Positions 14,039 through 18,620 are shown, counted from the first letter of the stretch. The stretch: 64,000 nucleotides of DNA from Escherichia coli (GCF_016026235.1 NZ_CP065613.1), one strand, 5' to 3'. Translations and numbers: made by a program. The notes: a model not told the origin generated them from the sequence alone.

Positions 14039-14644
14039 ATGACGCTCTACCAGATAAAACCGCTCTTTCAGTCGCTGTTAAGGCCGACGATGTTTTGGCT
14101 TTATAAGCACCACGTTACAGCGAATCACATCACTCTTGCTGCACTGGCGCTTTCTCTTCTTACCGGTTTGCTGTTGATGTTGATGTCACAACCCATCCTC
14201 TTTATGCTATTGCCCATCGTGCTTTTTATCCGTATGGCGCTCAATGCGCTTGATGGCATGTTGGCGCGTGAGTGCAACCAGCAAACACGTCTGGGGGCGA
14301 TTTTGAATGAGACTGGCGATGTTATTTCCGATATTGCGCTCTATTTACCGTTTTTATTTTTACCGGAAAGTAACGCATCACTCGTAATACTCATGTTATT
14401 TTGCACCATATTGACTGAGTTTTGCGGTTTACTCGCGCAGACGATTAACGGTATTCGCAGTTATGCCGGTCCATTCGGCAAAAGCGATCGTGCGTTAATA
14501 TTTGGTTTGTGGGGGCTGGCCGTTGCCATTTATCCACAGTGGATGCAATGGAATAATCTTTTATGGAGCATTGCTTCAATTCTGCTTCTCTGGACTGCGA
14601 TTAATCGTTGTCGGAGTGTGCTTTTTATGAGTGCTGAAAGATAA
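14039..14644 (+). CDS. ynbA: CDP-alcohol phosphatidyltransferase family membrane protein
   Basis: ORF 14033..14644; ATG at 14039 (MTLYQIKPLF...), polytopic; recognised as YnbA. Confidence 0.85.
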   Translation: MTLYQIKPLFQSLLRPTMFWLYKHHVTANHITLAALALSLLTGLLLMLMSQPILFMLLPIVLFIRMALNALDGMLARECNQQTRLGAILNETGDVISDIALYLPFLFLPESNASLVILMLFCTILTEFCGLLAQTINGIRSYAGPFGKSDRALIFGLWGLAVAIYPQWMQWNNLLWSIASILLLWTAINRCRSVLFMSAER

Positions 14645-15540
14645 TGCTGGAAAAATCTCTGGTAACACTTTTCGCGTTGTTAATTTTAGCAACGCTGATA
14701 AACCATTTTCTGCTATGGCGGTTACCGGAGAGAAAAGGGGGTGAGGTTACATTACGTATTCGTACCTGGTGGGGCATCGTCATTTGTTTTTCACTGGTGA
14801 TTTCAGGTCCACGCTGGATGACGTTGACGTTTTTTGCGCTGATAAGTTTTCTGGCATTGAAAGAATATTGTACGCTTATATCCGTACATTTTCCGTGGTG
14901 GTTATATTGGGTTATTCCTCTTAACTATTTGCTTATCGGTTTTAATTGCTTTGAGCTGTTTCTGTTATTTATACCTTTGGCTGGGTTTCTGATATTAGCC
15001 ACCTGGCGAGTTTTTGTGGGTGACCCCTCCGGTTTTCTGCATACCGTGAGCGCCATTTTTTGGGGCTGGATAATGACCGTTTTCGCCTTGAGTCATGCCG
15101 CCTGGTTATTAATGTTGCCAACCACAAATATCCAGGGCGGGGCGTTACTGGTGTTATTTCTTTTGGCATTAACCGAGTCAAACGATATTGCACAGTATTT
15201 ATGGGGGAAATCCTGCGGCAGAAGAAAAGTGGTCCCCAAAGTCAGCCCGGGAAAAACACTGCAAGGTCTGATGGGTGGCGTAATCACCACCATGATTGCG
15301 TCACTGATTATTGGACCGTTGCTGACACCGCTAAATACATTACAGGCATTATTAGCGGGTTTGTTAATTGGTATTAGTGGTTTTTGCGGCGATGTAGTGA
15401 TGTCAGCCATCAAACGAGATGTTGGTGTTAAAGATAGTGGAAAACTATTACCAGGACATGGCGGACTCCTTGACAGGATTGACTCATTAATTTTCACCGC
15501 TCCGGTATTTTTTTATTTTATACGCTACTGCTGTTACTGA
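14644..15540 (+). CDS. ynbB: CDP-diglyceride synthetase (CdsA) paralog
   Basis: 298-aa polytopic membrane ORF; C-terminal region resembles CdsA (...KTLQGLMGG..., ...GHGGLLDRIDSLIFTAPVFFYF). Confidence 0.85.
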   Translation: MLEKSLVTLFALLILATLINHFLLWRLPERKGGEVTLRIRTWWGIVICFSLVISGPRWMTLTFFALISFLALKEYCTLISVHFPWWLYWVIPLNYLLIGFNCFELFLLFIPLAGFLILATWRVFVGDPSGFLHTVSAIFWGWIMTVFALSHAAWLLMLPTTNIQGGALLVLFLLALTESNDIAQYLWGKSCGRRKVVPKVSPGKTLQGLMGGVITTMIASLIIGPLLTPLNTLQALLAGLLIGISGFCGDVVMSAIKRDVGVKDSGKLLPGHGGLLDRIDSLIFTAPVFFYFIRYCCY

Positions 15541-15555
15541 AGGAAAATAGAGAAA

Positions 15556-17314
15556 ATGGAAAATTCACGCATCCCTGGGGAACATTTTTTTACCACCAGT
15601 GATAATACAGCGTTGTTTTATCGGCACTGGCCCGCTTTACAGCCTGGGGTGAAAAAGGTCATCGTCTTATTTCATCGCGGGCATGAACATTCTGGTCGTC
15701 TACAACATCTCGTTGATGAACTGGCGATGCCAGATACTGCTTTTTATGCCTGGGATGCCCGAGGGCATGGAAAAAGTTCGGGGCCGCGTGGTTATAGCCC
15801 ATCTCTTGCGCGTTCAGTGCGGGATGTCGATGAATTTGTCCGTTTTGCTGCCAGCGACAGCCAGGTTGGACTGGAAGAGGTGGTTGTGATCGCGCAAAGC
15901 GTCGGCGCAGTGCTGGTTGCCACATGGGTTCATGATTATGCGCCTGCAATTCGCGGGCTGGTGCTGGCTTCTCCGGCCTTTAAGGTTAAATTGTATGTGC
16001 CGCTGGCACGTCCTGCGCTGACGCTATGGCATCGTCTGCGTGGTCTGTTTTTTATTAATTCCTATGTGAAAGGACGCTATTTGACCCACGATCGGCAACG
16101 GGTGGCGAGTTTCAATAATGATCCGCTGATCACACGGGCGATTGCCGTCAATATCTTGCTCGATCTCTATAAAACGTCTGAACGTATTATTAGAGATGCG
16201 GCGGCGATTACGCTCCCCACGCAACTTCTGATATCAGGCGATGACTATGTGGTGCATCGCCAACCGCAGATTGATTTTTATCAGAGATTTACGTAGCCCT
16301 CTGAAAGAGCTGCATCTGCTGCCAGGCTTTTATCACGACACGTTGGGTGAAGAGAACAGGGCGCAGGCATTTGAAAAAATGCAAAGCTTTATTAGTCGTT
16401 TATATGCTAACAAGTCACAAAAATTTGATTATCAGCATGAAGACCGCACTGGACCATCAGCGGATCGCTGGCGCCTCCTTTCAGGTGGACCCGTGCCATT
16501 ATCGCCGGTTGATTTGGCGTATCGCTTTATGCGTAAAGCGATGAAATTGTTCGGGACGCACTCTGCGGGCCTGCATCTCGGAATGAGCACTGGCTTTGAT
16601 TCAGGCAGTTCGCTGGATTATGTCTATCAAAATCAACCGCAAGGCAGTAACGCATTCGGGCGCTTAATCGACAAAATCTACCTGAACAGTGTTGGCTGGC
16701 GCGGTATTCGCCAGCGCAAAACCCATTTACAAATACTGATTAAACAAGCCGTTGCCGATCTCCACGCCAAAGGTTTAGCCGTCCGCGTGGTTGACATTGC
16801 CGCAGGGCATGGGCGCTATGTACTGGATGCACTGGCAAACGAGCCTGCCGTAAGCGATATTTTATTACGTGATTACAGTGAGTTAAATGTTGCACAGGGG
16901 CAAGAGATGATTGCCCAACGGGGAATGTCTGGGCGGGTGCGTTTTGAACAGGGCGATGCGTTTAACCCGGAGGAACTCAGCGCGTTAACTCCGCGGCCTA
17001 CGCTGGCGATTGTCTCTGGACTGTATGAGCTGTTTCCCGAAAATGAGCAGGTAAAAAACTCACTCGCAGGTCTTGCCAATGCCATCGAACCGGGCGGCAT
17101 TCTCATCTACACCGGGCAGCCGTGGCACCCTCAACTGGAGATGATTGCCGGGGTGTTAACCAGTCATAAAGATGGTAAACCGTGGGTAATGCGCGTGCGT
17201 TCGCAAGGGGAGATGGATTCGCTCGTGCGTAATGCCGGATTTGATAAATGCACTCAACGGATTGATGAGTGGGGCATTTTTACGGTTTCGATGGCGGTGC
17301 GTCGTGATAACTGA
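15556..17314 (+). pseudogene. ynbC: alpha/beta-hydrolase + SAM-methyltransferase fusion protein, disrupted by +1 frameshift
   Basis: Two ORFs in different frames (15556..16296 and 16241..17314) together cover full-length YnbC. The first frame hits TAG at 16294-16296 just after a TTT run (16288-16290); the second frame continues the protein. Confidence 0.75.
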
Positions 17315-17327
17315 ACGCCGGAACGTA

Positions 17328-18620
17328 TTGCTACAAGGCGCTGGCTGGTTATTGTTGCTGGCCCCGTTTTTCTTCTTCACCTATGGATCTCTTAATCAGT
17401 TCACCGCGGTTCAGGACTTTAACAGCCATGATATCCCCAGTCAGGTATTCGGCTGGGAAACGGCGATCCCTTTTCTTCCCTGGACTATTGTTTCTTACTG
17501 GAGTCTGGATCTTTTATATGGATTTTCGCTGTTCGTTTGTAGCACGACATTCGAACAGCGCCGACTTGTCCACCGGCTTATTCTGGCAACGGTAATGGCC
17601 TGCTGCGGTTTTTTGCTCTATCCGCTGAAGTTTAGTTTTATCCGTCCTGAAGTGAGTGGGGTGACGGGATGGCTATTTTCGCAACTTGAACTGTTTGATC
17701 TGCCTTATAACCAGTCTCCTTCGCTGCATATTATTCTCTGCTGGCTACTTTGGCGTCACTTTCGTCAGCATCTGGCTGAGAGGTGGCGTAAAGTCTGTGG
17801 CGGATGGTTTTTACTCATCGCTATTTCTACTCTGACGACCTGGCAGCATCATTTTATTGATGTCATCACAGGGCTGGCGGTAGGTATGTTGATTGACTGG
17901 ATGGTGCCCGTCGATCGTCGTTGGAATTATCAGAAACCTGATCAACGTCGAATCAAAATAGCACTGCCATATGTCGTAGGCGCGGGCTCGTGCATTGTGT
18001 TGATGGAGCTAATGGTGATGATTCAGTTATGGTGGTCAGTCTGGTTATGTTGGCCAGTATTATCGCTACTCATTATTGGCCGTGGGTACGGTGGGCTTGG
18101 CGCGATAACAACAGGGAAAGATAGTCAGGGGAAACTCCCGCCCGCCGTTTACTGGCTGACATTGCCCTGGCGCATCGGGATGTGGCTGTCTATGCGTTGG
18201 TTTTGTCGTCGCCTGGAGCCGGTGAGCAAAATTACTGCTGGTGTTTATTTAGGGGCGTTTCCACGACATATTCCGGCACAGAATGCGGTTCTGGACGTCA
18301 CCTTTGAATTCCCTCGGGGACGAGCGACAAAAGATCGACTCTATTTCTGTGTACCGATGCTGGATCTGGTGGTTCCGGAAGAGGGGGAGCTCCGACAGGC
18401 CGTGGCGATGCTGGAAACATTACGCGAAGAGCAAGGCAGCGTTCTGGTCCATTGCGCGTTGGGATTATCGCGCAGTGCGCTGGTAGTGGCGGCATGGTTG
18501 TTATGTTACGGACACTGTAAAACCGTTGATGAAGCGATTAGTTATATTCGAGCCAGACGTTCGCATATTGTGCTTAAGGAAGATCACAAAGCGATGCTGA
18601 AATTATGGGAAAACAGGTAA
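17328..18620 (+). CDS. ynbD: Membrane protein with C-terminal CX5R protein-tyrosine/dual-specificity phosphatase-like domain
   Basis: ORF 17232..18620 overlaps the ynbC 3' end. Start is uncertain: TTG at 17328 (then [17 protein letters not shown]...) matches the 430-aa length I recall. Active-site-like [11 protein letters not shown] near the C-terminus. Confidence 0.75.

Follow-up and report, generated by a model that had tools for sequence, protein, structure and literature searches.

The ynbABCD operon of Escherichia coli: probably a reduced copy of a widespread membrane-lipid module

The ynbABCD genes are annotated in essentially every Escherichia coli genome, and what they do is among the clearer unsolved parts of the membrane-lipid biology of this species. 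We examined the operon in a 64,000-nucleotide stretch of an E. coli genome (GCF_016026235.1, NZ_CP065613.1; hereafter the window), where it occupies positions 14039-18620 and where ynbC carries a frameshift. The locus raises the question of which pathway the four genes might form, and of what the frameshift takes away from it. A sequence-only reading of the stretch had seen four co-oriented, overlapping or abutting genes here, which the listing of open reading frames (ORFs) and the sequence itself bear out (ynbA, ynbB, ynbC and ynbD, all on the plus strand). It had also proposed that they follow the logic of a headgroup pathway in which CDP-diacylglycerol (CDP-DAG) is made, an alcohol phosphate is transferred, and the product is dephosphorylated and modified. 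On balance, we think that ynbABCD is a reduced copy, with four genes of six, of a widespread inner-membrane module that makes a minor glycerophospholipid and processes it further. The operon, its annotations, the link between YnbB and the glycolipid MPIase, and the frameshift allele were already public. What is added here is the six-gene ancestral module, a signature with two Asn substitutions in YnbA and, in YnbD, a predicted pairing of an outer-face domain resembling sphingomyelin synthase (SMS) with an inner-face dual-specificity phosphatase (DSP) domain.

The ynb module across bacteria and in Escherichia

Scanning one genome per species with patterns specific to the YnbA subfamily recovered a YnbA-type gene in at least 577 species. 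Its hosts include Enterobacterales, Pasteurellaceae, the Pseudomonas syringae group, Rhizobium, Phyllobacterium, Brucella, Neisseria and Chromobacterium, and further Campylobacter, Sulfurospirillum, methanotrophs, Nitrosomonas, Bacteroidetes, Acidobacteria and others. Gene neighbours were counted at 58 loci with at least 6 kb on either side of the ynbA homologue. At 27 of these, ynbA stands with homologues of ynbB, ynbC and ynbD and with a gene for a PlsC/Aas-type acyltransferase; 17 have YnbB and the acyltransferase only, and eight have YnbC and YnbD only. The E. coli composition, with YnbB, YnbC and YnbD and without the acyltransferase, occurs at two loci, a further two have none of these neighbours, and two show other combinations. 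In an unbiased clustering of flanking ORFs the sole recurrent families were YnbA, YnbB, the acyltransferase, YnbC, YnbD and small membrane ORFs after ynbD, and no enzyme that would supply an acceptor recurred beside the module. The acyltransferase belongs to the lysophospholipid-acyltransferase family, with matches to an Aas-like model (E 3e-17) and to AGP_acyltrn (E 2.6e-15) as well as HxxxxD and FPEGTR motifs. Natural fusions were also found: a YnbA-YnbC fusion of 807 aa is encoded beside YnbD-like, acyltransferase and YnbB-like genes, and a YnbA-acyltransferase fusion of 436 aa beside a YnbB-like gene. Because of this synteny across phyla, together with the fusions, we consider it likely that the ynb genes form one lipid pathway. 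To that extent the logic of a single headgroup pathway stands, but its plain 'dephosphorylate' is too simple, as the membrane module of YnbD appears transferase-like (see below).

The small membrane ORFs after ynbD fall into three BLAST clusters, found in 15, 9 and 7 loci, and have no Pfam or NCBIfam match. An ORF of this kind, of about 135-150 aa, lies directly 3' of the ynbD homologue in at least 31 of the 42 loci that carry ynbD (L046 11838-12290, L036 11829-12290, L034 4289-4726), and it may be the sixth component of the module. A separate ORF of 195 aa follows the acyltransferase gene in some of the clusters limited to YnbA, YnbB and acyltransferase (L008 4338-4925; L032, L052, L055, L085) and has a weak VTT/DedA match (E 0.0014). 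VTT/DedA-domain proteins are proposed lipid scramblases, and the presence of this ORF may be a sign of flipping of the product lipid from one side of the membrane to the other.

The Escherichia copy can be set beside the orthologous site in Salmonella bongori, between ydbH-ynbE-ydbL and azoR-hrpA, where the order is A-B-acyltransferase-C-D followed by a 134-aa membrane ORF. The two extra genes of S. bongori (L094) are the acyltransferase gene, at 7518-8174 between ynbB and ynbC, and the membrane ORF, at 11200-11604 after ynbD. Throughout Escherichia, the cryptic clade included, the operon is A-B-C-D, and no remnant of the acyltransferase or of the small ORF was detected in the window (15541-15555 and 18621-18670). 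These comparisons suggest that the ancestral module had six genes, of which Escherichia would have kept four and lost the PlsC-type acyltransferase and the small membrane protein. The four remaining genes are under purifying selection, with a ratio of non-synonymous to synonymous substitution rates (dN/dS) of 0.12-0.18 for each of them between E. coli and cryptic-clade Escherichia (0.012 for azoR). For expression work, S. bongori, Citrobacter and Hafnia, with their six-gene operons, would offer the natural unit, and not E. coli with its four-gene remnant. Between the window and cryptic-clade Escherichia (L093 6001-10590), synonymous divergence is 0.63-0.70 in ynbA and ynbB and 0.11-0.20 in ynbC and ynbD, a step that suggests recombination with a boundary close to where ynbB meets ynbC, the very site of the missing acyltransferase gene.

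Catalytic features of the four proteins

Profile searches uphold the families that had been assigned from the sequence (PF01066 for YnbA, the C-terminal half of CdsA for YnbB, Hydrolase_4 and Methyltransf_20 for YnbC, and DSPc for YnbD), and the catalytic residues of YnbA, YnbC and YnbD are invariant over alignments of 31-56 homologues. YnbA matches PF01066 over residues 27-175 (Pfam, E 1.7e-9). Its nearest solved relatives are mycobacterial phosphatidylinositol-phosphate (PIP) synthases, found with E 2.5e-8 from the single sequence and 2e-16 from a profile of 56 homologues, and its best relatives in NCBIfam and the PDB are archaetidylinositol-phosphate (AIP), PIP and phosphatidylglycerophosphate (PGP) synthases. 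It nonetheless falls below the NCBIfam equivalog cut-offs of all three, with 75.7 bits against a cut-off of 180 for AIP synthase (NF040950), 49.1 against 170 for PIP synthase (NF045883) and 31.2 against 109.1 for PgsA (TIGR00560). The signature of the CDP-alcohol phosphotransferases, D1xxD2GxxAR...GxxxD3xxxD4, comprises eight residues described as 'absolutely conserved', of which D1-D3 hold the metals and D4 is the catalytic base (PMC4634129); in Mycobacterium tuberculosis PgsA1 the Mg-1 ligands are D68, D71 and D89 (PMC6506517). YnbA has six of the eight residues. When it is aligned to PgsA1, N69 stands opposite D1 (D68) and N90 opposite D3 (D89), with D2 (D72), the Gly, the Ala-Arg pair, the second Gly and D4 (D94) kept. 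YnbA is therefore a CDP-alcohol phosphatidyltransferase by family, as first read, but not a canonical one.

Of 116 close YnbA homologues, 114 have this Asn/Asn variant, as do 105 of the roughly 114 representatives at 50% identity that could be matched, the most distant at about 40% identity. In the 56-sequence alignment N69 is invariant and N90 at least 90% conserved, with E127, R140, K148, D150, R151 and R190 also invariant. Given that the variant is so widely conserved, it is no local defect, and the pattern reads as that of an active enzyme with a putatively altered metal site. The substitutions could reflect mononuclear metal use or could make room for an anionic nucleophile. A subfamily found in at least 577 species thus breaks the 'absolutely conserved' signature, which predicts altered metal use or acceptor chemistry. 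A shift of register, in which D94 and D98 would serve as D3 and D4, was also considered and was ruled out by PgsA1, which has the same extra Asp four residues past D4.

YnbB resembles CdsA in part. Its match to PRK11624 covers residues 160-291 only and reaches 111.9 bits (cut-off 385), and it aligns to TmCdsA (4q2g) over the catalytic signature with E 2e-22. The C-terminal CdsA signature, which we take to be S-x-[LIVMF]-K-R-x4-K-D-x-[GSA]-x2-[LIF]-[PGS]-x-H-G-G-[LIVMF]-x-D-R-[LIVMFT]-D as given in PROSITE, is present in YnbB by direct reading (SAIKRDVGVKDSGKLLPGHGGLLDRID). On these matches YnbB would be classed as a paralogue of CdsA and not as its orthologue.

Intact YnbC (585 aa, in a cluster of more than 11,000 member sequences) combines a Hydrolase_4 domain at residues 32-266 (E 1e-68) with a Methyltransf_20 domain at residues 275-582 (E 5e-153; both from Pfam), and the two share one reading frame in 43 of 43 loci. 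The hydrolase aligns to the monoacylglycerol lipases (MGLs) Rv0183 and human MGLL, and matches them in an HGxxEHSGR motif and in a Ser115/Asp230/His260 triad that is invariant in 36 homologues. The methyltransferase has the fold, the motif I and the acidic loop of a class I S-adenosylmethionine (SAM)-dependent enzyme (PF12147): its model (mean predicted local distance difference test score, pLDDT, 93.4) matches many SAM methyltransferases in Foldseek with probability 1.0, and D413, A415, G417 and D439 are invariant in the 36-homologue alignment. The fold names no substrate, with an uncharacterised protein as top match followed by generic small-molecule methyltransferases, and a profile search of the PDB gave only weak matches (Methyltransferase type 12, FPP-methyltransferase; E 2e-4 or weaker). 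Two oddities of the sequence collections touch on this protein. A deposited E. coli protein of 889 aa (P0122) carries PF01148, of the YnbB type, together with the full YnbC domain set and is probably a ynbB-ynbC read-through fusion in some strain. In a 90% cluster with a methyltransferase fragment, several members (P0257, P0258, P0265, P0268) are named 'polymer-forming cytoskeletal protein, partial'; the label fits the neighbouring bactofilin-like ydbD and not ynbC, and looks like an oddity of annotation or clustering.

YnbD had been described as a membrane protein with a phosphatase motif. The CX5R motif is indeed present on direct reading (Table 1) and belongs to a DSP domain, but a PAP2-superfamily membrane domain at the N-terminus had been missed. 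Pfam gives a strong DSPc match at residues 314-437 and weak PAP2 and PAP2_3 matches at 80-206 (E only 2e-4). In structure comparisons with the AlphaFold model (31 homologues, pLDDT 93.2), the C-terminal domain scores 19.4 with DUSP4 and 18.7 with PTPMT1, the mitochondrial PGP phosphatase. The membrane domain scores 14.1 with SMSr (193 residues), 12.6 with the inositol phosphorylceramide (IPC) synthase Aur1, 10.9 with LpxE and 10.8 with PgpB. In the model, then, the fold of this domain appears nearer to SMSr and Aur1, which are phospho-headgroup transferases, than to the PAP2 phosphatases.

The residues of YnbD can be read in the same light. Invariant over the 31 homologues are H142 (in motif C2), H183 and D186 (in C3), D354, C384 and R390. 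PAP2 phosphatases have the motifs KX6RP (C1), PSGH (C2) and SRX5HX3D (C3) (PMC7413402). In YnbD, C2 is PSLH, with P139 and H142 invariant, C3 is S-T-x5-H183-x3-D186, without the Arg, and C1 is K-x4-RP, in which the Lys is not conserved. The homologues thus do not conserve two phosphate-binding residues of true PAP2 phosphatases, the Lys of C1 and the Arg of C3. Over the alignment, the predicted cytoplasmic loops have 12.7 Lys and Arg residues and the predicted periplasmic loops 2.6, so that, by the positive-inside rule, the His-His-Asp site is predicted to face the periplasm and the DSP domain the cytoplasm. YnbD combines the PAP2-like helical core, the His-His-Asp triad (with its exoplasmic facing predicted) and the fold similarity of SMS/Aur1-type enzymes with the HCX5R(S/T) P-loop, general-acid Asp and fold of Cys-based DSPs (PF00782). 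We infer an enzyme active on both faces of the membrane, as a phosphatase in the cytoplasm and as an SMS-like transferase on the periplasmic side.

Proposed pathway and competing explanations

A pathway built from these parts would begin with CDP-DAG made by YnbB at the cytoplasmic face, an activity type supported by the literature. YnbA would then move the phosphatidyl group to an acceptor, probably an anionic or phosphorylated common metabolite; a phosphorylated acceptor, followed by a phosphatase, is suggested because the best relatives of YnbA are AIP, PIP and PGP synthases. The headgroup phosphate would be removed by the PTPMT1-like cytoplasmic DSP domain of YnbD, as PTPMT1 acts on PGP. 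The PldB/MGL-like hydrolase of YnbC may remodel the acyl chains, in other genera alongside the PlsC/Aas-type acyltransferase, and its SAM methyltransferase may methylate a small-molecule or headgroup position. Lastly, the periplasm-facing His-His-Asp domain of YnbD would act on the periplasmic side of the inner membrane, transferring the phospho-headgroup or cleaving it. For the steps after CDP-DAG supply (those of YnbA, YnbD and YnbC), the particular order and reactions are offered tentatively. It is also conceivable, if speculative, that the module is an undescribed envelope pathway in which a phosphatidyl-X, made inside by the Asn-substituted YnbA, becomes the donor for SMS/Aur1-like headgroup transfer by YnbD onto another envelope molecule. 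The transferred phospho-headgroup would possibly be methylated, and the whole would be a bacterial counterpart of sphingomyelin/IPC synthase chemistry. Were a new lipid or envelope modification to be made in this way, it would matter for many pathogens and symbionts, among them Pseudomonas syringae, Neisseria, Campylobacter, Brucella and Rhizobium.

Several points weigh against reading the operon as a lipid-building module. No lipid product is known for ynbABCD, and the best match of the methyltransferase fold, an uncharacterised protein, gives no guide to a substrate. With Asn at both D1 and D3, only one of the three Mg-1 ligands is left, and YnbA may have a different chemistry or be weakly active. 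Overexpressed YnbD complemented neither undecaprenyl pyrophosphate (C55-PP) phosphatase mutants nor PGP phosphatase mutants (PMC7413402). YnbB does not complement a cdsA deletion or replace CdsA in bulk phospholipid synthesis, and cells deleted for ynbB grow normally and keep their MPIase, except under competition from Tam41p for phosphatidic acid (PMC6362211). Having neither the acyltransferase nor the small ORF, E. coli may run a different pathway from that of the ancestral module. Finally, megablast found no match to ynbC in 824 of the 5,426 complete E. coli genomes (about 15%), which makes the operon dispensable and part of the accessory genome, and independent ynb lesions in other strains likewise mark it as expendable. 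That ynbA, ynbC and ynbD are unassigned, as the sequence-only reading stated, agrees with the literature: YnbD is counted as a fourth PAP2 protein with no function ascribed (PMC7413402), and a literature search found nothing on YnbA, YnbC or PF12147. On the module as a whole, the search yielded only the work on YnbB and MPIase, the listing of YnbD among PAP2 proteins and the regulation of the promoter by BglJ-RcsB.

The connection of YnbB to MPIase that the sequence-only reading mentioned is on record (PMC6362211, PMC11413397). Overproduced YnbB raises MPIase about as much as CdsA does (PMC6362211), and the effect of the ynbB deletion under competition from Tam41p points the same way. Reviews report that cdsA and ynbB are co-induced in the cold. 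It may be, then, that ynbABCD is an MPIase back-up in which YnbB makes CDP-DAG and YnbA, in place of CdsA or YnbB, couples GlcNAc-1-phosphate to it, giving GlcNAc-PP-DAG (compound I), with the Asp-to-Asn changes cutting negative charge and so letting a phosphate nucleophile enter YnbA. The idea has chemical appeal, the conservation of the variant signature would suit this role, and the enzymes of the later MPIase steps are not known. We nevertheless regard it as unlikely. MPIase is an essential glycolipid, whereas cells can do without ynbB and show no change in MPIase when it is deleted; the 824 complete genomes just mentioned have no match to the operon; and the module also occurs in Campylobacter, Rhizobium, Pseudomonas, methanotrophs and Bacteroidetes. 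The glycan of MPIase is like enterobacterial common antigen, which is not known outside Enterobacterales, and the proposal leaves YnbC and YnbD without a role. In the published work YnbB was overproduced alone, without YnbA (PMC6362211), and the papers and reviews on YnbB and MPIase make no mention of ynbA, ynbC or ynbD.

A second possibility is that the Escherichia operon is a silenced remnant, left after loss of the acyltransferase and the small ORF, and that the ynbC frameshift is the next step of its decay. This we think quite unlikely. The dN/dS of 0.12-0.18 in all four genes was obtained between two Escherichia that are both already without the acyltransferase, the catalytic residues are all retained, and the more than 11,000 sequences clustered with intact YnbC also speak against decay. 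In addition, a review, citing the original work, reports that ynbB is cold-induced and contributes to growth in the cold.

One might instead suppose a signalling role, in which the DSP domain of YnbD, and perhaps YnbC too, has proteins or soluble metabolites as substrates and the adjacency to ynbA and ynbB is regulatory. The top structural matches of the DSP domain are the MAP-kinase phosphatases DUSP4, DUSP5 and DUSP14, its P-loop (HCxxGxSRS) is DUSP-typical and is without the basic residues of PTEN-type lipid phosphatases, and the YnbC methyltransferase resembles natural-product methyltransferases. However, the DSP domain is invariantly fused to a lipid-enzyme domain, and this, together with the synteny, leaves the signalling explanation improbable.

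The ynbC allele, the locus and known systems

A global alignment of the 4.58-kb operon with that of FDAARGOS_943, the nearest intact E. coli relative among complete genomes (99.9% identity), shows three single-nucleotide differences (15207, 15645 and 17493) and exactly one indel. The indel is an inserted T (AGATTACG to AGATTTACG) that brings a TAG into frame, and both lie where the sequence-only reading had placed them (Table 1). A 71-nt probe over the insertion site matched 4,135 complete RefSeq E. coli genomes, K-12 MG1655 included, all at 70/71 or less and none with the extra T. A search for the exact 246-aa truncated product found it in 28 collection blocks, and the 24 contigs that were read carry the allele. 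It has been deposited as STL95251.1 with its partner STL95255.1 (355 aa according to gene callers), on 17-18 contigs, one of them a 4.56-Mb chromosome. Over 6,741 bp, three allele-bearing contigs match the window at 99.955-100% identity. Since the same insertion is present in many near-identical assemblies, it is a real clonal allele and not a read error; it has a single origin and is the mark of one minor clone of E. coli. The identity of the four genes and the reality of the frameshift are practically certain. A sequencing or assembly error, for which a short homopolymer is a common site, or a recoding event that restores full-length YnbC, has only a very remote chance of being the explanation, given the same allele in at least 24 independently assembled contigs (NCBI, Logan) near-identical to the window, a T3 run that is too short, and the missing recoding signals described next.

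As far as sequence analysis can show, a programmed +1 frameshift, transcriptional slippage and an RNA element at ynbC are not supported, in view of absent signals and lack of conservation, in agreement with the first reading, which had seen no such signals. No slippery heptamer, nearby stop-stalled shift site, upstream Shine-Dalgarno stimulator or downstream structure was found at the frameshift; the RNA 3' of it folds no better than shuffled sequence (z = -0.59), and an Rfam search there matched no family. A T3 run is too short for transcriptional slippage. The split arrangement occurs in none of 43 orthologous loci in other species and in none of the 4,135 E. coli genomes. The frameshift is, in short, an ordinary one, and the allele is already in public assemblies.

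As to its effect, the shift falls at codon 245, between Asp230 and His260, so that Ser115 and Asp230 lie on the 246-aa product and His260 on the downstream ORF. The window YnbC does not have the Ser-Asp-His triad of PF12146-type hydrolases on one polypeptide, which argues that the hydrolase is inactivated in this clone. The downstream ORF would encode about 16 foreign residues followed by His260 and the whole methyltransferase domain; upstream of its possible starts at 16241 or 16247 there is only a weak AGG. A polar effect on ynbD is possible, given the 11-nt overlap of the two genes. The earlier view that the pathway is incomplete in this strain is right as to the split hydrolase, but understated the matter, in that all Escherichia are without two ancestral genes; the loss of the whole pathway through the frameshift was presumed only, and the methyltransferase ORF is intact. 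The clone would be a natural ynbC hydrolase-null, usable as a comparison strain.

Table 1. Features of the ynbABCD locus, in window coordinates
Feature	Position	Strand	Basis
ydbD-ynbA intergenic region, presumed ynbA promoter region	13869-14038	+	Intergenic in ORF and sequence reading; PMC3950696
ynbA, variant CDP-alcohol phosphatidyltransferase, 201 aa	14039-14644	+	PF01066
YnbA signature N69-x2-D72-G73-x2-A76-R77-x8-G86-x3-N90-E91-x2-D94-x3-D98	14243-14332	+	Alignment to M. tuberculosis PgsA1
ynbB, putative CdsA paralogue (CDP-diacylglycerol synthase family), 298 aa	14644-15540	+	Partial PRK11624 match, TmCdsA match
ynbC 5' fragment, lysophospholipase/monoacylglycerol-lipase-like hydrolase, 246 aa, without His260	15556-16296	+	ORF, alignment
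ynbC 3' ORF, shifted frame, 357 aa, ATG at 16241 and 16247, His260 and complete PF12147 domain	16241-17314	+	ORF listing
TTT run with inserted T (TT in intact allele)	16288-16290	+	Alignment, probe search
Premature TAG from frameshift	16294-16296	+	ORF, sequence, alignment
ynbD, predicted two-module inner-membrane enzyme, 438 aa	17304-18620	+	GTG start taken from FDAARGOS_943 RefSeq annotation; Pfam; model
YnbD membrane domain, about 8 transmembrane helices, PAP2-superfamily, SMS/Aur1-like; H142, H183 and D186 predicted periplasm-facing	17304-18203	+	
YnbD dual-specificity-phosphatase domain, predicted cytoplasmic	18243-18614	+	
YnbD CX5R P-loop	18447-18479	+	Direct reading; aligned to DUSP26 and DUSP14 P-loops
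Perfect 17-nt inverted repeat between convergent ynbD and azoR	18624-18662	.	

The operon is flanked by ydbD (11556-13868) on one side and by azoR (18671-19276, minus strand) and hrpA (19477-23379) on the other, with the paa operon upstream; this paa-ydbD-ynbABCD-azoR-hrpA arrangement is standard for E. coli. The genes are tightly packed: ynbA and ynbB share 1 nt (TAATG), a 15-nt spacer separates ynbB from ynbC, the two ynbC ORFs overlap each other, and the GTG start of ynbD lies inside ynbC. BglJ-RcsB activates the ynbA promoter (PMC3950696), and a sigma-70 scan of the region upstream of ynbA gave no promoter match. The inverted repeat beyond ynbD (arms GATCTTGATGTGGACTG / CAGTCCACATCAAGATC, with a 5-nt loop and no T-tail) is probably a bidirectional terminator hairpin, which the terminator scan missed because it has no T-tail; promoter-like and terminator-like sites were not above chance in the scan.

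The lesion and the proteins each have known counterparts. As a lesion, the ynbC allele is like ordinary E. coli lineage pseudogenes from homopolymer indels, being a single base in a short T run, clonal, and absent from the 4,135 genomes, and it differs only in that the downstream domain stays an intact ORF. The N-domain of YnbC shares Hydrolase_4, the HGxxEHSGR motif and the triad with PldB (lysophospholipase L2) and the monoacylglycerol lipases (Rv0183, 6EIC; human MGLL), whereas its fusion to a PF12147 methyltransferase, found at all 43 loci, was not found in characterised MGL or PldB proteins. YnbB is comparable with CdsA and with the CdsA/YnbB step of MPIase biosynthesis in that its C-terminal half aligns with CdsA and its overproduction raises MPIase; in contrast with CdsA, its N-terminal half is unrelated, it is non-essential, and at 60 of 80 loci its gene stands together with one of the YnbA type.

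Three systems of lipid synthesis invite comparison with the proposed pathway as a whole. With the PIP and AIP synthases (M. tuberculosis PgsA1, 6H53; RsPIPS, 5D91) YnbA shares the P(D/N)xx(T/S), DG, AR and G motifs, D2 and the catalytic base D4, and the ynb model resembles PIP/AIP synthases with PIP phosphatase in that a phosphorylated product is made first and then handed to a phosphatase of its own. YnbA differs in the Asn residues at D1 and D3 and in scores far under the equivalog cut-offs, and an inositol-phosphate synthase is not recurrent beside the ynb module; we know of no inositol-phosphate synthase in E. coli. The pairs formed by PgsA with PgpA, PgpB and PgpC in E. coli and by PGS1 with PTPMT1 in mitochondria are a second parallel, from which the ynb system departs in that YnbD does not complement a pgpA pgpB pgpC mutant and YnbA matches PgsA only weakly (31.2 against 109.1 bits). 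The third is the SMS family (SMSr, 8IJR) with Aur1 (9IVC), where sequence identity to YnbD is only 12-13% and where, to our knowledge, E. coli has no ceramide pathway. Unlike SMS and Aur1, which are without one, YnbD is fused to a DSP phosphatase domain predicted to lie in the cytoplasm.

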